Below are positions 20,469 to 26,792 of a DNA stretch of 34,283 bases, piece after piece (the stretch's first letter is position 1; the number at the start of each line of letters is the position of its first letter). Location of the stretch: assembly GCA_964349535.1 (NCBI GenBank), contig CAYGGQ010000001.1, positions 1 through 34,283 of the forward strand, written 5' to 3'. The notes under the pieces are model-generated. The model was given only the letters and a program-made list of their open reading frames with translations, had not been told where the DNA came from and ran no database searches. The translations under genes and the position numbers were made by a program. Source of the DNA: an uncultured Gammaproteobacteria bacterium (GTDB lineage Bacteria > Patescibacteriota > Patescibacteriia > 2-12-FULL-60-25).

Positions 20469-22181
20469 ATGTTTGTCCAAGTCGTGCCTGTCGTACGAAC
20501 GCCGGCAGGTGTTGATGTGTTTGATTACCGGCTTCCTGCCGGTTTTGAGGCGCGCGTAGGCGATCTTATTCGAGTCCCATTTCGCAAGCAGATCACCCCA
20601 GCACTCGTCGTCGCGCTCCTAAAAACAAGCCCCGTGGCGCACAAAGCGCTCGATGCCATCGACTCTTATGCGGGACTTTCTTTTCCTAGCTCTCTCGTCG
20701 AACTCTTGCACTGGACCGCGGCACGTACCTTTACCTCCAAACCAACCGTTCTTGCCGCATGGATGCGCCAGCTGCCAAAACGACCAACATCGATCGCCTT
20801 TGAAGCGCCCAAACCTCGATTGACCTCCGGCTCTCTGATCGCTCATTGGAACATGAGCGCGTCTGCGGCCCTCGTCGAACGAGCACGCGTAGCTCTAAAA
20901 GAAAATCAACGTGTCCTACTTATCACCCCTTGGAAAAATCGCGTCTTGCGTTATCAACAGCAACTCCCTGGCGCGCAAGGACTGCACAGCGACATGGCAG
21001 ACGGTCAAGCGTTCCAAGCATGGCAAGCATTTGTGACCGGACAAACACGTTGCCTCATCACAACCCGTCTCGGCGCGTGGCTCTCCCCTGTGTCAGACGT
21101 TGTGTTGATTGATGAACCAGAAAACGACGATCATAAACAAGATGATCTCGCTCCTCGCTATGATGCGCGCCTTATGTCTGCTTGGTGCTCTCGTTTTGCT
21201 GGTACGCAAGTCGAAGGATTCGGTCTGACCCCGCCGCTTCATACACGAACGATCGCGCCTACGATCACAACTCCTCTGCATGTCATCATCCGAGAACGTC
21301 AGGGTCGATCGTCGATCCCGATGGTTCAGGCAGACACGCTTCTCCTTTTGAAAGACCATGACGGTCCACGTGTGATCATTCATCCTATTCGTGGGGTTGC
21401 CGCGAGTCTCGTCTGTCGCGATTGTGGATGGCGCGCGATCTGCGCCAACTGCGGTTTTGGTTTGCGCGCGGAAAAGACGAACGCTGTCTGTCGTCAATGC
21501 GGAAAGATGGCCGACCTCCCACAAGACTGTGGCTCTTGTGGGGGCGTAGACCTTGGAAAAGCGATGCCCGGCATCGAACAACTCAAACAAGCGTGGCAGC
21601 GCCATGAGCAAGCGGAGCGCGTCGAATGGCGCGATCAAAGCAACGAATCGATCGATCCGCCATTTCCCACGGGCGCCCTTGTTGTGATCACCGATGGTTC
21701 ACTTTTAGGCGGTGGTTTTGAGGATGTGCGTCGCACCGAACGCCAATGTCAAACCTTCCGTCGTCTCGCAAATCGCGTCGCCGAATGTCATGGGACCCTT
21801 ATCATCCAGTCAGATGAGGCTCTTGCCTCATCTTGGCACTCTTGGCTCAAAGCAGAAGGCGTCACGGCGTGGCAGGAGCGGGAGCGTCATGATCGAGAGC
21901 TGTTTCAATACCCGCCCGCAAAACGTCTTGTTAAAATCCTTGTTGATGGCACAGAACAAGAAGCAATCCATTGGATGGAAAAAGCAAAACCAACGATCGA
22001 CCCAAATGCCCAGTGGCGTGGGCCCTTTCACATCCCCTTTCGTGCCAAATCACGTCGTGAACGTCACGTGTTACATTTGATCTTTCTCACGGACACGACC
22101 GAACAACAACTCATCACTCAATTGACCCCGCTTGCCAGATCCGCCATCATAGACCTTGACCCGATCGCATTTTTCCATTAA
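20469..22181 (+). CDS. priA: Primosomal protein N' (PriA)-like, with a degenerate ATPase motif I.
   Basis: PriA-type N-terminus MFVQVVPVVRTPAGVDVFDYRLP...GDLIRVPF. Cys-rich zinc module CRDCGWRAICANCG...CRQCG...CGSCGG. VLIDEPENDDHKQ aligns to the PriA DEEHD.SYKQ motif. No GxGKT is found where it is expected (VLLITPWKNRV). Confidence 0.7.
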   Translation: MFVQVVPVVRTPAGVDVFDYRLPAGFEARVGDLIRVPFRKQITPALVVALLKTSPVAHKALDAIDSYAGLSFPSSLVELLHWTAARTFTSKPTVLAAWMRQLPKRPTSIAFEAPKPRLTSGSLIAHWNMSASAALVERARVALKENQRVLLITPWKNRVLRYQQQLPGAQGLHSDMADGQAFQAWQAFVTGQTRCLITTRLGAWLSPVSDVVLIDEPENDDHKQDDLAPRYDARLMSAWCSRFAGTQVEGFGLTPPLHTRTIAPTITTPLHVIIRERQGRSSIPMVQADTLLLLKDHDGPRVIIHPIRGVAASLVCRDCGWRAICANCGFGLRAEKTNAVCRQCGKMADLPQDCGSCGGVDLGKAMPGIEQLKQAWQRHEQAERVEWRDQSNESIDPPFPTGALVVITDGSLLGGGFEDVRRTERQCQTFRRLANRVAECHGTLIIQSDEALASSWHSWLKAEGVTAWQERERHDRELFQYPPAKRLVKILVDGTEQEAIHWMEKAKPTIDPNAQWRGPFHIPFRAKSRRERHVLHLIFLTDTTEQQLITQLTPLARSAIIDLDPIAFFH

Positions 22182-22184
22182 CCT
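22156..22184 (+). promoter_or_regulatory. Putative promoter for def, lying inside the priA 3' end.
   Basis: TTGACC (22156-22161), a 17-nt spacer, then TAACCT (22179-22184). The ATG of def lies 13 nt downstream and has no Shine-Dalgarno sequence. Confidence 0.35.
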
Positions 22185-22197
22185 GACTTATCATCCT

Positions 22198-22683
22198 ATG
22201 GAAATGGAACCATTCCAAATTCTGACAGAACCCACAAAGTCCTTACGCGAACGATCGCGCGTATTAGACGTGGAAGAGGTCACGACACCCGAATTTCAGC
22301 AGTATCTCGATCGCCTCATTCATACGATGTTCACCTCTGATGGGGTTGGGATCGCTTCGCCACAGGTTGGACGTAACATACGAGCGATTGTCGTCTTCAT
22401 GCCAAAGGGTGCCGAATGTTTTATCAATCCAGAAATTACCAAGACATCAACAAGCATGACGGACAGCGAGGAGGGTTGTCTAAGCGTCCCCGGCAAGTTT
22501 GGCATTGTCCCGCGTCATAAAAAAGTCACGGTCCGTGCCCTCAACCGCCACGGTCGTCGTGTAGAATTTGACGCTAAAAACTTCCCCGCCATCGTTTTTC
22601 AACACGAAATCGATCATCTCGATGGCATCCTGTTCATCGATAAAGCGACCAGCATGCTGTCAACGGTCAAACGACATATCTAA
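22198..22683 (+). CDS. def: Peptide deformylase.
   Basis: Motifs GVGIASPQVG, EGCLSVPG and QHEIDHLDG. Start taken at ATG 22198, after the priA stop. Confidence 0.92.
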   Translation: MEMEPFQILTEPTKSLRERSRVLDVEEVTTPEFQQYLDRLIHTMFTSDGVGIASPQVGRNIRAIVVFMPKGAECFINPEITKTSTSMTDSEEGCLSVPGKFGIVPRHKKVTVRALNRHGRRVEFDAKNFPAIVFQHEIDHLDGILFIDKATSMLSTVKRHI

Positions 22684-22701
22684 TCTAGCAATTTTCTTCA
22701 A

Positions 22702-23688
22702 TCATCTCTCGTCTTGAGAAGGATTTTGCGTTTTTGTTTGCAGCAATCGTTCCAACTCATAGGCATTCGCATGCCAGCAAAGACCTGAATAGGATGACAG
22801 ATTTTCTGGCGTTGCTCGTTTGAGCATCCGTCTTATCGTCTTCGATCGTAAAACGGTCGCGTGAGGTAAAAGTACGTATCCAAGAAAATCAACCCCTTGC
22901 TTCCACGTCTGTACCTTTACTTTGTTCGGATGCAATTCCATCTTCAATCTATTTTTAAGAAACACATCTACACGTTCTGCCAGATCAAATGCTTCAGATC
23001 GTGCCAACGTCAGAATCACAAAATCATCACAATAACGAACATAATGAATGGCTCGTAACTCATGCTTTACATAGCGATCCAACTCATGAAGATAGACATT
23101 GGCAAAAATCTGGCTTGTGAGATTACCAAGCGGAATGCCACGGCCGGGAAGGACGGAAAAACTCTCGATAATCCCCCGAAGCAAACGAACAACCTTCTCG
23201 TCTTTTACCCTCCGTCCCAACAAGGAAAGCAAAATCTCATGATCTACCGACGCAAAAAACTTCCTGACGTCGCACTTCAACGCATAGACCGTCCTCGTAT
23301 GATTCACGCTCGCCCGTCGGAGAAAAACTCCTAAGCGAGCTACAGCCACATGAGTGCCTTTTTCGAGCCGACATGAATAGCTGTCATAAATGAACCGCGA
23401 CTCAAAAAACGTCTCAATAACATTGACGATCGCTTGATGCACGACCCGATCCCTCACGGTCGCCTTATGTATACTGCGCTGCTTCGGATCAAAAATCGTA
23501 AATGGTTGGTAGGGGCCATGTCGGTATGTTTCTTCAAGGAGACTGTCCCATAAAGAAAAGATATTATCTTCAAGATGATATTCAAACTCCATCACATCCC
23601 CCTTCGATCGCTTGCCTTTGCAAAATCTGTGCCAAGCCTCAAATAAGTTTTCAAGAGAAACGATGCGGTAGAATAGGTCATTATTCAT
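22702..23688 (-). CDS. DGR-type reverse transcriptase.
   Basis: 328 aa. RT motifs are KQRSIHKATVRDRVVHQAIV, LKCDVRKFFASVDHEIL, the DGR-diagnostic IPLGNLTSQIFANVYLHELD ([ILV]GxxxSQ), and YVRYCDDFVIL (YxDD). RBS GGAGAGGT. Confidence 0.92.
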   Translation of the reverse strand: MNNDLFYRIVSLENLFEAWHRFCKGKRSKGDVMEFEYHLEDNIFSLWDSLLEETYRHGPYQPFTIFDPKQRSIHKATVRDRVVHQAIVNVIETFFESRFIYDSYSCRLEKGTHVAVARLGVFLRRASVNHTRTVYALKCDVRKFFASVDHEILLSLLGRRVKDEKVVRLLRGIIESFSVLPGRGIPLGNLTSQIFANVYLHELDRYVKHELRAIHYVRYCDDFVILTLARSEAFDLAERVDVFLKNRLKMELHPNKVKVQTWKQGVDFLGYVLLPHATVLRSKTIRRMLKRATPENLSSYSGLCWHANAYELERLLQTKTQNPSQDER

Positions 23689-23716
23689 TTTTACCTCTCC
23701 GAGAGGAGATTCCTCT

Positions 23717-24101
23717 ATGTTACCCCCCCCGCCACAATTTCAATCAAATCTCTCACAATCCAAGCGACATACCCATCATTCAGGCCATCTATGGTCTCTA
23801 CGCGTTCTGGAATGAAATCTTGCTGAAGTTCCCAAAAACCCAACGACATCTCCTTGGCCAAACCTGTGCCGAATACCTGCTTGATGTACTTGAAAAAACG
23901 CTGGCATCAGCACAAACGACACAGGTCACGGAAAAAATCCCCTACTTACAACACGCGAGTACAAAACTCGATACGCTCAAACTACTCACGCGCCTTACGA
24001 AGGACTGTAAGTGCATTTCAAACGCACAGTATTTGCAAATGGAGTCCAAGCTACAGGAAATAGGCAGGATGCTCGGCGGATGGATCAAGTCGCTTGGATA
24101 A
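23717..24101 (+). CDS. avd: Avd (accessory variability determinant; four-helix-bundle, 23S rRNA IVS protein family). The start requires a 1-nt correction in a C8 tract.
   Basis: In-frame part: PIIQAIYGLYAFWNEILLKFPKTQRHLLGQTCAEYLLDVLEKTL...CISNAQYLQMESKLQEIGRMLGGWIKSLG, the typical Avd C-terminus. The only SD-preceded ATG (GAGAGGAG-N8-ATG at 23717) is in the neighbouring frame. Removing one C from C8 (23723-23730) joins the two frames. The span is 385 nt, that is 3n+1. Confidence 0.75.
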
Positions 24102-24109
24102 AAAGCAAC

Positions 24110-24128
24110 CCCACCTGTGAAAGGTGGG
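24110..24128 (-). terminator. Hairpin between the avd stop and the TR 3' end. It looks like a terminator only on the minus (TR) strand.
   Basis: Minus strand reads CCCACCT-ttcac-AGGTGGG followed by GTTGCTTTTTA. On the plus strand the tail is ATCGTGATGGGG, with no T-run. Confidence 0.45.
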
Positions 24129-24142
24129 ATCGTGATGGGGAG

Positions 24143-24277
24143 TCCCGCAAGCGGGGCACCGAGTAGTTCGAGTTGTCATTGCTGCGGTCGTTGGCGTTGA
24201 CGTTCACCTGACGATTGTCACGGTTGAAGTTCACGATCACGACGTTCTGCCACGCCTCGTCGTCGTTCTCGGGGACG
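24143..24277 (-). repeat. DGR template repeat (TR).
   Basis: 135 bp aligning without gaps to 24687-24821 (offset 544). There are 119 identities. All 16 mismatches are T on the plus strand, which is A on the minus strand of this copy. In the target reading frame it carries 9 AAC and 2 AAT codons. Confidence 0.92.
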
Positions 24278-24614
24278 AGCTATATTACGTTTTCTCCTTC
24301 CATGACACCGAGCACAGGCGCACCCATGCCCTGTATTTTATGCGGGGTGCAACTACGTCAGTTTGATGACATAGCCCATCCCAAAAGAAAACGCGGAGTA
24401 CCCATCATTCGCGCCGCATCACCCTTCGCTCCTGCTGGAGCTACGGGTGACACCCCGAAGCTTTAGCGAAGGGGTGCGCTCTCGAACTCCGTAAAGATCG
24501 AGACTCTGACGGCATATGCGAGTAATAAGAGATTTCGGCGACCGGCATCCGTAAACGCCGATTCATGAGCCTACTTTCCATGCATAAGTATACCAGTTTT
24601 TGATAAAAAAATTA

Positions 24615-24660
24615 GGCGCTCAGGGAACCAAGGTCAGAAGACCAAGGTTCCCCAAGCGCC
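24615..24660 (-). terminator. Long interrupted hairpin 26 nt downstream of the VR. It could be the target-gene terminator and/or a DGR homing-associated hairpin.
   Basis: Minus strand reads GGCGCT-t-GGGAACC-tt-GGTC-ttct-GACC-tt-GGTTCCC-tg-AGCGCC followed by TAATTTTTTT. Confidence 0.6.
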
Positions 24661-24682
24661 AAGTGTTCAAGTTACAAGTGCC

Positions 24683-25540
24683 TTACTCCCGCAAGCGGGG
24701 CACCGAGTAGTACGAGTTGCCATCGCTGCGGCCGTGGGCGCTGACGCGCACCTGACGATTGTCACGGTCGAAGAGCACGATCACGACGCGCTGCCACGCC
24801 TCGTCGCCGTCCGCGGGGACGTTGACCTCGTAGCCAGCGGCGAACAAGCCGGGGAGCTTGTCGTAGTCGATGGCCTGGATCATATCCTTGAACAGCCATA
24901 CGATGACGAGCAGCTCGTCGGCGAGCGACTTGGAATCGCGCACCGCCGTGATGCTCTCGCGCTTCCGGTTGGTGTCGAGGTCGGCCACGATCCATTCGAC
25001 GACCGCGTGGTGCGTGTTGTTGCCGGAGAGCAGCCGCAGGCGCTCCACGGGCGTGCCCTCGTACTCGACCTTGCCCGAGTGGAGCAGGTTCCAGCGCCAG
25101 AAGCGACCTTCGCCGAAGACGTGCTGGAGGCGGGCATAGTGCGCTTCGAAGGTCTTGGCCACGCCCTCGTCCCCTTCGCCGAAGCGGATGCGGAACGAAC
25201 GGTAGGCGGACTTGCCTTTCGGCCACGCGGGAGCGGAGGAGGCGAGACGGACGAAGTCCTCCTCGGTCATTCCCCACTTTTCCTCGTCGTTCGCACGACG
25301 GAGAGCGGTGAGCTGTGCCTCGACGGTCATCTCATACGGGTTCTTCTCGGCGCGGGCGAGCTGCTCGTTGATGAACTGGATGAGCAAGCTCGCGTTCTCA
25401 CCCTCCTTGCCGCCGCGCATCCAATCGGTGTGTGCGGTCGTGCCGCCCGCCTTTTCGATGACACGGAGGGTGGAGTGAAGCAGGTCGTGCTCGATCTTCG
25501 TGATGGGGTTGGCCATTGGCGTCACCCGTTCCTTTCGCAT
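24683..25540 (-). CDS. DGR target (variable) protein with the VR at its C-terminus. No recognisable N-terminal domain.
   Basis: 285-aa ORF. An alternative start at ATG 25516 (MANPITK) has AAGGAA upstream. The last 45 codons are the VR. The TR AAC codons are in frame with this ORF, which fixes the coding strand. Confidence 0.85.
   Translation of the reverse strand: MRKERVTPMANPITKIEHDLLHSTLRVIEKAGGTTAHTDWMRGGKEGENASLLIQFINEQLARAEKNPYEMTVEAQLTALRRANDEEKWGMTEEDFVRLASSAPAWPKGKSAYRSFRIRFGEGDEGVAKTFEAHYARLQHVFGEGRFWRWNLLHSGKVEYEGTPVERLRLLSGNNTHHAVVEWIVADLDTNRKRESITAVRDSKSLADELLVIVWLFKDMIQAIDYDKLPGLFAAGYEVNVPADGDEAWQRVVIVLFDRDNRQVRVSAHGRSDGNSYYSVPRLRE
24687..24821 (-). repeat. DGR variable repeat (VR).
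   Basis: Counterpart of the TR. It encodes VPADGDEAWQRVVIVLFDRDNRQVRVSAHGRSDGNSYYSVPRLR, against the TR-encoded VPENDDEAWQNVVIVNFNRDNRQVNVNANDRSNDNSNYSVPRLR. Confidence 0.92.
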
Positions 25541-25676
25541 GCCGCAGACTGTCCAGACTCAGGATCATTCCCTAGTACGTGGAGTTGTCGTTTGTTGAAA
25601 GCGGCCTGTTAAAGCCCACAGAATGAGCTACAAAACGCCACTTTCAACAATAGGTTGCTATTTCAAAGAACATACA

Positions 25677-25705
25677 TTTATAGCATGTTTTCTGGGAAAA
25701 GTCAA
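25677..25705 (-). promoter_or_regulatory. Strong sigma-70-like promoter for the DGR target gene.
   Basis: Minus strand reads TTGACT (25705-25700), a 17-nt spacer, then TATAAA (25682-25677). It lies about 130 nt upstream of ATG 25540. Confidence 0.5.
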
Positions 25706-25853
25706 GCGCAGTACCTGTGCTTTTGCCTTATTTAGCCGGATTTATTGTAATAAACCAACTTTATCCAACAGAACCTATCTTACCACCCCCTCTTCCGCTG
25801 TCATGCTGTCTTATATATGTAATTCGTGCTAAATTTTCTGACGCTTACTGCTT

Positions 25854-26792
25854 ATGTTCCCGTCCCCCCTCCGCCTCCTCTTCCTTGGCACCTCCTCCTT
25901 CGCCGTCCCTGCGTTACGTCATTTAGCGAATGACAAACGCTTTCTCGTCACAACCGTCATCACGCAGCCTGACCGTCCCGTTGGTCGTCATGCCACGCTC
26001 ACACCCCCTCCCGTAAAAACGACCGCCCAAGAACTCAAGATCCCCGTCTTACAGTTTGAGCATGTAAAAAAAGATGACGCGTGGGATATTCTGAAAGAGC
26101 TCCACGCGGATGTCGGCGTTGTCGCGAGCTTTGGCCAGATCATCCCCCAACGACTGCTCGATCTGCCACGTCTTGGTATGGTCAACATTCATACCTCGCT
26201 CTTACCGCTCTATCGCGGAGCGTCCCCCATTGCCGAAGCGATAAAAAATGGCGATACAGAAACGGGTGTCACGATCATGAAAATGGATGCTCTGTTGGAT
26301 CATGGTCCTATTCTTCACGTTGCCCACGAAACGATCCTTCCAACCGACACCACCGCGAGCCTAGAAGAGCGCTTAGCAAAGCTTGGCGCAGAGATCCTTC
26401 CTGATACGCTCATCGCTTACGCAGAAGGTCAACTCACTCCGCAAGAGCAGGATCATACCAAGGCGACGTCGGTGAAACTCTTATCCCGCGAAGACGGTCA
26501 ACTGGATTGGCAAAAAACTGCTGAAGAGCTGGAACGTCTTGTACGCGCTTATCATCCTTGGCCTGGAACATTTACCATGCTCGACGGGAAACGACTGAAA
26601 ATTTTTAAAACACTCGTTGGCCCAACCTCCTCCCGCTCCCCCGGTAGTCGCTTTATGACTGATCAACTCCCCTGTATCACCGCGGGACAAAACACCTCGT
26701 TATGTCTTCTTGAAGTACAGCCAGAAGGCAAGGCTATGATGACAGGCGAGGCTTTTTTACGTGGAAACATGCACTGGGAAACAGTGCATTGA
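25854..26792 (+). CDS. fmt: Methionyl-tRNA formyltransferase.
   Basis: Contains LLFLGTSSFAVPALRHL, TQPDRPVGR, NIHTSLLPLYRGASPI and the C-terminal domain. Confidence 0.9.
   Translation: MFPSPLRLLFLGTSSFAVPALRHLANDKRFLVTTVITQPDRPVGRHATLTPPPVKTTAQELKIPVLQFEHVKKDDAWDILKELHADVGVVASFGQIIPQRLLDLPRLGMVNIHTSLLPLYRGASPIAEAIKNGDTETGVTIMKMDALLDHGPILHVAHETILPTDTTASLEERLAKLGAEILPDTLIAYAEGQLTPQEQDHTKATSVKLLSREDGQLDWQKTAEELERLVRAYHPWPGTFTMLDGKRLKIFKTLVGPTSSRSPGSRFMTDQLPCITAGQNTSLCLLEVQPEGKAMMTGEAFLRGNMHWETVH

Follow-up and report, generated by a model that had tools for sequence, protein, structure and literature searches.

To our knowledge, the RNA of the BPP-1 diversity-generating retroelement (DGR) is the only DGR RNA to have been studied biochemically and structurally. 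Its core comprises 20 nt of avd, the template repeat (TR) and a 140-nt downstream spacer, all of which are required, and cDNA synthesis starts in cis at the 2'-OH of residue A56 in the spacer (Handa et al., NAR 2018, PMC6182149). The spacer forms two adjacent duplexes, one with the TR and one with an upstream segment (Handa et al.; the sources used for BPP-1 were the 2018 paper and bioRxiv 10.1101/2023.10.23.563531). Handa et al. analysed the 40 nt before each TR and the 100 nt after it; in 207 of 278 Avd-containing DGRs, those of the candidate phyla radiation (CPR) included, they predicted stem-loops immediately 3' of the TR, which they read as Avd-binding. According to the parts of Wu et al. 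(NAR 2018, PMC5758913) used here, CPR bacteria account for 126 of the 372 DGRs of that study, a large share of those known, and 90% of CPR DGRs have a layout named Architecture B3, TR-(avd)-RT (RT, reverse transcriptase), whose components on opposite strands require at least two transcription units. The present analysis concerns a DGR in a 34,283-nt stretch of DNA (contig CAYGGQ010000001.1, assembly GCA_964349535.1), which is called the window below. The element is an ordinary CPR (Patescibacteria) DGR of the published B3 layout, and its gene order is already known; what could matter is not the gene order, it is the comparative evidence on the RNA that carries the TR (TR-RNA). The element is probably a B3 DGR with a separate TR-RNA, a scaffold on the 5' side of the TR, and an Avd protein whose production is gated by a simple repeat.

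Relatives of the window RT were gathered in a scan of one genome per species. This returned 547 relatives, and the best 80 (46-83% identity), nearly all from metagenome-assembled genomes of Patescibacteria, were analysed. The source genome (1.07 Mb in 184 contigs) holds four further DGR RTs besides the window copy. A pair of TR and variable repeat (VR) was detected in 64 of the 84 other loci examined. The alignment of the full TR-RNA and of its long-range helices comprised 20 loci, all from closer relatives (RT identity about 53-83%). An exact-protein look-up with the window RT gave no match. A first metagenome pattern scan found nothing; a second found one strain, 98.45% identical to the closest relative (L001).

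The putative promoter of the TR-RNA is an extended -10 element, TGGTATACT, that lies 10-18 nt beyond the terminator of the target gene. The pattern TGnTAnnnT was present in 46 of 65 VR-TR spacers, and in 41 of those 46 it occurred once only. It mostly followed a T-rich stretch, namely the tail in which the target terminator ends. A conserved RNA 5' end, GGARAGTAGG, in the form (C/T)GGA(A/G)AGTAGGCTCATG, came 6-9 nt after the pattern in the nearer relatives. Most of the remaining close relatives carried near-variants (TATAAT or TATGAT) without the TG.

Between this promoter and the TR lies a leader for which RNAalifold returned a consensus of 48 pairs from 21 loci, and 36 of these pairs showed compensatory changes. 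For the full TR-RNA (20 loci), the figures were 62 pairs and 37 compensatory. A search of both strands of positions 22000-26000 against Rfam, which includes the RT-1 to RT-19 motifs of Weinberg et al. 2017, returned no family at E <= 1. In the closer relatives, CCCGCATAAAATACAGG (window 24330-24347) was nearly invariant, and its ATAAAAT core was unpaired in the consensus structure; this core is a candidate for a protein contact or a catalytic site within the leader.

One strand of the leader, termed the clamp strand, was predicted to form two adjacent helices that bracket the TR. The 5' half of the strand pairs with the TR 3' end and the linker that follows it, and the 3' half pairs with the segment at 24302-24287. 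Across the 19 clamp pairs in the 20 aligned loci, 95.3% of cells were paired, as compared to 84.5% in shuffled alignments, and none of 500 shuffles reached the observed value. Cells that had changed on both sides numbered 57, against 21.4 in the shuffle control. In a second control, in which the partner was slid by 1-3 columns, 40-65% of cells were paired. Pairing in the style of Handa et al., i.e. of the post-TR linker with the 40 nt that precede the TR, yielded no helix supported like the leader helix. From the position of the clamp strand we infer that the CPR DGR RNA is permuted, such that a spacer-like scaffold would lie 5' of the TR. With the scaffold moved there, only a stem-loop would be needed downstream of the TR, and avd could therefore sit antisense between the TR and the RT gene.

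The TR and the avd stop codon are separated by 41 nt, and this interval holds a terminator-like hairpin. Its core, CCCACCT-GTGAA-AGGTGGG (24110-24128), extends to 24106-24132, giving 11 pairs (6 of them GC) followed by CTTTTTAT on the minus (TR) strand only. This GC-rich stem-loop with its U-tract was classed as a predicted intrinsic terminator; the U-tract shares sequence with the final codons of the convergent avd. Every close relative had a strong hairpin about 12 nt 3' of the TR, and the stem sequences differed. Because these stems could not be aligned by sequence (MAFFT and RNAalifold), folding z-scores for the individual loci and the composition of the tails were used. For the 60 nt after the TR (53 loci), the mean minimum free energy was -20.2 kcal/mol and the mean z was -4.0, with z < -2 in 87% of loci. 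The tail after the hairpin, read on the TR strand, contained a mean of 5.0 T per 10 nt (at least 5 T in 30 of 53 loci). An A-rich head before the hairpin was found in only 3 of the 53. The T-rich tail on the TR strand and the scarcity of A-rich heads together give the polarity of a terminator for TR-sense transcription. The TR-RNA, with inferred ends at about 24580 and 24098, would thus be roughly 480 nt long and independent of the RT message.

One alternative is a co-linear RNA like that of BPP-1. In that case, the post-TR hairpin would be read through, antisense avd would serve as the spacer, and the hairpin would only bind Avd. The stem-loops that Handa et al. predicted downstream of the TR, in CPR elements as in others, are consistent with this, as are the 23 of 53 relatives whose stem is followed by fewer than 5 T within 10 nt and the failure to find a confident RT promoter. 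Against it stand the specificity of the T-rich tail for the TR strand, with textbook terminators in many relatives, and the location of the covarying, TR-bracketing strand, which is upstream, in the leader. What follows the hairpin is the coding sequence of avd, in which no distinct conserved RNA element was seen; the co-linear RNA would also be entirely antisense to the avd mRNA. This explanation is judged unlikely. An earlier note on this DNA had left open two options, a transcript running from the TR to the RT gene antisense to avd, and a separate short TR-RNA ended by the hairpin at 24110-24128. The comparative evidence favors the second, through the conserved promoter, the covarying leader and the TR-strand terminator. 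The remark in the same note that the hairpin looks like a terminator on the TR strand alone agrees with the T-run, which is found on the minus strand and not on the other, and the expectation that the relationship between TR-RNA and RT would differ from that in BPP-1 is supported.

Several points weigh against a separate TR-RNA with a 5' scaffold. The T-poor tails in 23 of the 53 relatives are one of them. The hairpin after the TR may correspond to the stem-loop that Handa et al. read as Avd-binding, instead of, or besides, a terminator; the two readings are compatible. The promoter, the start site and the 3' end of the TR-RNA are predictions. In the source genome, a sequence profile of the leader (nhmmer) found only the window copy; the other four DGRs have diverged leaders, which the profile missed. 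Finally, the cis-priming site would perhaps, or even probably, also lie in the 5' leader, and this placement is purely an argument from analogy.

The coordinates of the features of the element are collected in Table 1.

Table 1. Features of the window DGR, with positions in the window unless another contig of the source genome (G000) is named
Feature	Positions	Strand	Basis or remark
Extended -10 promoter TGGTATACT (predicted), predicted start near 24580	24595-24587	minus	Motif conserved in relatives
Structured 5' leader of the TR-RNA, 303 nt	24278-24580	minus	RNAalifold, 21 loci
Clamp strand of the leader, GATGGGTACTCC then GCGTTTTCTTTTGG	24406-24381	minus	Two adjacent helices; covariation
Segment just upstream of the TR, TGGAAGGAGAAAACGT	24302-24287	minus	Pairs with leader 24394-24381
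TR	24143-24277	minus	135 nt, 88% identity to VR
TR 3' end and post-TR linker, GGGACTCCCCATC	24146-24134	minus	Covarying long-range helix with leader 24406-24395
Stem-loop 24132-24106 and U-tract, predicted intrinsic terminator of the TR-RNA	24096-24132	minus	11 pairs, then CTTTTTAT
avd start region, ATG TTA then C8 tract (23723-23730)	23717-23730	plus	Sequence; relatives compared
Junction repeats in the source genome	Window 23723-23730; G000 C2:9218-9226, C43:1147-1157, C72:4110-4119, C11:770-819		
Avd (bAvd) domain frame	23731-24101	plus	PF22296 at 6e-15; stop TAA 24099-24101
Gap between divergent start codons, 28 nt	23689-23716		Holds palindrome CCTCTC-c-GAGAGG
DGR RT gene, 328 aa	22702-23688	minus	RVT_1 match 1.4e-22; IPLGNLTSQ and YCDD motifs in translation
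VR	24687-24821	minus	Last 45 codons of the target open reading frame
Target gene, 285 aa	24683-25540	minus	Contains VR at 24687-24821
Target mRNA terminator, long GC-rich hairpin and T7	24667-24605	minus	Inverted repeat I1, 3' of the target gene/VR

At the junction of avd and the RT gene, the RT start codon (CAT, 23686-23688) and the ATG at 23717-23719 are exactly 28 nt apart, as the earlier note had stated. GGAGAGG is found 5 nt upstream of the RT ATG and GAGAGGAG 8 nt upstream of ATG 23717, and the palindrome at 23694-23706 carries a Shine-Dalgarno-like motif on each strand. The description of the gap as essentially one palindrome that supplies both Shine-Dalgarno sequences was borne out for the motifs and not for the extent, which is 13 of the 28 nt. 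In many relatives, the start codons are separated by 0-4 nt (CATATG, CATG), and the range among the relatives is 0-30 nt. Because these gaps are so short, the promoters and 5' untranslated regions (UTRs) of avd and RT must lie inside each other's genes, as had been proposed for the window. For avd, the candidate there is TAGAAT (23669-23674); for RT, it is TTGAAA-15 nt-TAACAT (23743-23717). Neither promoter could be defined with confidence at the junction. In one relative (L018:3914-3992), the avd-RT gap measures 78 nt and is filled by tandem copies of a unit of about 14 nt (GGTAATTCGTAATT).

The gap palindrome was rejected as a significant feature. Besides occupying less than the whole gap, it is of a size that is common in the window (67 perfect 6+6 palindromes, as compared to 33 in shuffles), and it is not conserved, being weakened to 4-bp arms in L001 and absent from the other relatives inspected. 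A regulatory role, in which it would act as an operator or as a hairpin that sequesters the Shine-Dalgarno sequences and co-regulates both divergent genes, would draw on its overlap with both motifs and on a second inverted repeat, AGAGGA-gat-TCCTCT (23702-23716), that could mask the Shine-Dalgarno sequence of avd. Its poor conservation and its commonness count against such a role, as do the many relatives in which 0-4 nt would have to accommodate it; moreover, two back-to-back Shine-Dalgarno motifs on opposite strands constitute an inverted repeat by construction. Regulation by the palindrome is regarded as quite improbable.

The ATG at 23717 had been taken for the start of avd. This assignment failed; the codon is out of frame with the Avd domain, and its own frame stops after 32 codons. 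The domain lies in the +1 frame relative to this ATG, across the C8 tract at 23723-23730. The bAvd domain PF22296 matches (6e-15), yet there is no nearby in-frame start codon in the sequence as assembled. The only ATGs in frame with it (23502 and 23526) are deep within the RT gene. A long, N-terminally extended Avd that starts at ATG 23502 was considered and rejected, as the length of the upstream open frame is irregular among the relatives.

The tract that separates the two frames is conserved as a simple repeat. A C7-C15, (CA)n or (GA)n tract was found at the avd/RT junction in 61 of 84 loci, and the window conforms in having C8 after ATG TTA, that is, in the 5' coding region. Long simple repeats, defined as G/C runs of at least 8 or dinucleotide repeats of at least 6 units, were sought in 628 kb of loci, and 62 of the 72 detected were located at the junction. 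The entire source genome contains five G/C runs of at least 8 and one long dinucleotide repeat. Four of these runs, together with the dinucleotide repeat, (AC)25, sit at the 5' ends of its five avd genes, which thus carry C8, C9, C11, C10 and (AC)25. Only in the (AC)25 copy is the nearest ATG in frame; in the other four copies it is out of frame. The fifth G/C run (G000 C43:8014-8021) belongs to the stem of a terminator-like hairpin, C8 ... G6 then T7.

The repeat may lie within the overlapping 5' coding ends of both avd and RT. Of 63 repeat-bearing loci, 25 had an RT frame that was open through the tract and lacked any ATG, GTG or TTG between the tract and the conserved RT body. On contig C2 of the source genome, the in-frame tract lengths for RT and avd differ, and a simple "both on" model fails to explain this copy. 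Some loci that lack the junction repeat have one elsewhere, either as C10-C11 at the avd 3' end (L031:3620-3630, L039:3632-3641 and L071:3623-3632) or as (GA)n inside or at the end of the RT open reading frame (L062:1761-1798, L053:4879-4894 and L059:5031-5052). The (GA)n of L053 is out of frame.

The simplest reading of the repeat is that of a slipped-strand on/off switch acting on Avd and sometimes on RT. In the window, the C8/G8 tract most likely gates the production of Avd and hence mutagenesis. Recoding by ribosomal or transcriptional slippage is a possible alternative role. Two findings lend no support to a switch. The nearest upstream ATG was in frame with Avd in 12 loci, at +1 in 29 and at +2 in 15, which is no clean pattern, and the strain that is 98.45% identical to L001 carries the same C9 as L001, a comparison that is uninformative as to variability. 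As a general explanation, a function of the tract as the -35/-10 spacer of an RT promoter was rejected, for TAnnnT followed the tract in only 18 of 58 loci. The spacer pattern does fit the window, L001, L009 and L013, and C10 in the window would produce both a 17-nt spacer and an in-frame avd; this role was retained as a local possibility only.

The frameshift could also mean that the element is decaying, i.e. that avd is a pseudogene, that the DGR is inactive, and that its layout has no functional meaning here. The out-of-frame ATG 23717, the want of another in-frame codon close to the domain at which Avd could plausibly start, and the four of five avd genes in the genome that are out of frame with their nearest ATG would all be expected in that case. 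However, the RT, Avd-domain and target reading frames are otherwise intact, and all 16 of the TR/VR differences are A-specific. In addition, the break always falls in the conserved simple repeat at the same spot (61 of 84 loci), a pattern that fits a reversible switch or a recoding site and not random decay. Decay is considered very improbable.

The mechanism proposed for the repeat-gated element with a separate TR-RNA features four transcription units instead of one: target, TR-RNA, avd and RT. The target mRNA would end at the hairpin and T7 (24667-24605). Directly after this terminator, the extended -10 promoter (24595-24587) would start a non-coding TR-RNA of about 480 nt, made up of the 303-nt folded leader, the 135-nt TR, a 12-nt linker and the terminator stem-loop (24132-24106 plus U-tract). 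The remaining two units, avd and RT, would be transcribed divergently from a compact shared 5' region, with the promoters and 5' UTRs of each located in the partner gene. The RT and Avd proteins would then act in trans on the TR-RNA, in which the clamp strand (24406-24381) would pair on both sides of the TR and leave the TR looped out between the helices. The slippage-prone C8/G8 tract at the junction, which is conserved across the clade, would gate Avd production and so mutagenesis. A bolder version, in which the TR-RNA is a circularly permuted, retron-like template RNA with its cis-priming residue in the 5' leader and the five DGRs of the genome are switched randomly and independently by their repeats, is put forward tentatively and at somewhat less than even confidence.

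The genes of the element are those of a DGR. The RT belongs to the DGR clade (RVT_1 at 1.4e-22, with LGNLTSQ and YCDD), and all 16 of the mismatches between TR and VR are at TR adenines. The target protein had no Pfam match. The TR (24277-24143, minus), avd (23717-24101, plus) and RT (23688-22702, minus) stand in the order of Architecture B3: avd lies between the TR and the RT gene on the opposite strand, convergent on the former and divergent from the latter. The strands given in the earlier note (RT, TR and target minus, avd plus) were confirmed by reading the sequence. That note had called the layout atypical and had proposed that the synteny of RT homologues be compared. Layouts were counted in the 76 relatives that have DNA upstream of the RT gene and in the four paralogous DGRs of the source genome. 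An opposite-strand avd was directly upstream of the RT gene in 76/76 and 4/4, respectively; the arrangement is universal within the lineage and atypical only in comparison to BPP-1. Since it has been published as well, the original headline observation adds nothing. All 64 of the other loci with a detected TR/VR pair had the TR on the strand of the RT gene, with the VR on one side and avd on the other; in these loci, mostly 40-60 nt lay between the end of the TR and that of the avd match. An assembly artefact, namely an inversion of the avd segment at 23.7-24.1 kb in the metagenome assembly, has nothing in its favor beyond the contrast with BPP-1 and is effectively excluded, because the same order is present in 80 independent loci (76 independent assemblies from many studies and four other contigs of the genome), L001 and the window are collinear throughout the cassette (about 80% identity at the nucleotide level), and the layout is published.

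The cassette sits between def and fmt (window 22156-22683 and 25854-26792), two genes that are usually adjacent. Of the 80 related loci, none had either gene within 4 kb, and L001 diverges from the window exactly at both ends of the cassette; the cassette therefore appears to have moved as one unit. Its GC content (22702-25540) is a mosaic, with 64% in the target, 59% in the TR, 53% in the leader, 47% in avd and 44.5% in RT, as compared to 51% for the whole window.

No description of a stand-alone, promoter-to-terminator TR-RNA, of a covarying leader or of an upstream clamp strand was found in the literature searched, nor was one found there of the junction repeat of CPR DGRs. In the parts of Wu et al. 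2018 (PMC5758913) used here, a TR-RNA promoter, a structured leader, a post-TR terminator and a junction repeat do not appear. If the TR-RNA is indeed autonomous and permuted, the minimal RNA for reconstituting a CPR DGR would be defined (about 24580-24096 in the window), and the claimed conservation of the reverse-transcription mechanism across taxa would become testable on a different topology. Stand-alone TR-RNA genes would also become recognizable in genomes. A repeat that gates Avd would represent a stochastic layer of control over targeted hypermutation; no description of one was found in the literature searched.

The nearest known systems are the CPR B3 DGRs described in the parts of Wu et al. 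(NAR 2018, PMC5758913) used here. They have the target/VR, TR, reverse-strand avd and RT in identical order and orientation, and they come from the same host group, Patescibacteria; there is no difference in layout. The window element resembles BPP-1 in having RT, Avd and a TR/VR pair whose differences are adenine-specific, in a TR that is flanked by essential RNA, in the single strand that makes two adjacent duplexes (one involving the TR 3' end, the other an upstream segment), and in the stem-loop just downstream of the TR. It is unlike BPP-1 in orientation, as the avd, TR and brt of the latter are co-oriented and the avd of the window is antisense. The bracketing strand also differs in its location. 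In BPP-1, it is part of the 140-nt spacer, which lies 3' of the TR and adjoins brt; in the window, it belongs to a 303-nt leader that would have its own promoter, and it is situated about 100-130 nt 5' of the TR. Only about 45 nt remain 3' of the TR in the window up to a putative terminator, and a long downstream spacer is missing.

The msr-msd RNA of retrons is likewise a stand-alone, structured non-coding RNA that is used in trans by its RT. Its template is closed by pairing of the flanking sequences, and the priming residue is on the 5' side of the template. The predicted window TR-RNA would be like it in these respects; there is no relationship of sequence or family, the branched RNA-cDNA is a feature of retrons, and the product of the window TR would home to the VR.

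The junction repeat has its counterpart in simple-sequence contingency loci. Examples are poly-G/C tracts in Campylobacter, Neisseria and Haemophilus and, in H. influenzae, the (TA)n tract that separates the divergent promoters of hifA and hifB. As in those loci, a homopolymer of at least 8 or a dinucleotide repeat occupies a 5' coding or control region, its length sets the reading frame, and this length differs between relatives (C7 to C15 in the window clade). Unlike in those loci, the function gated in the window would be a mutagenesis machine and not a surface structure.

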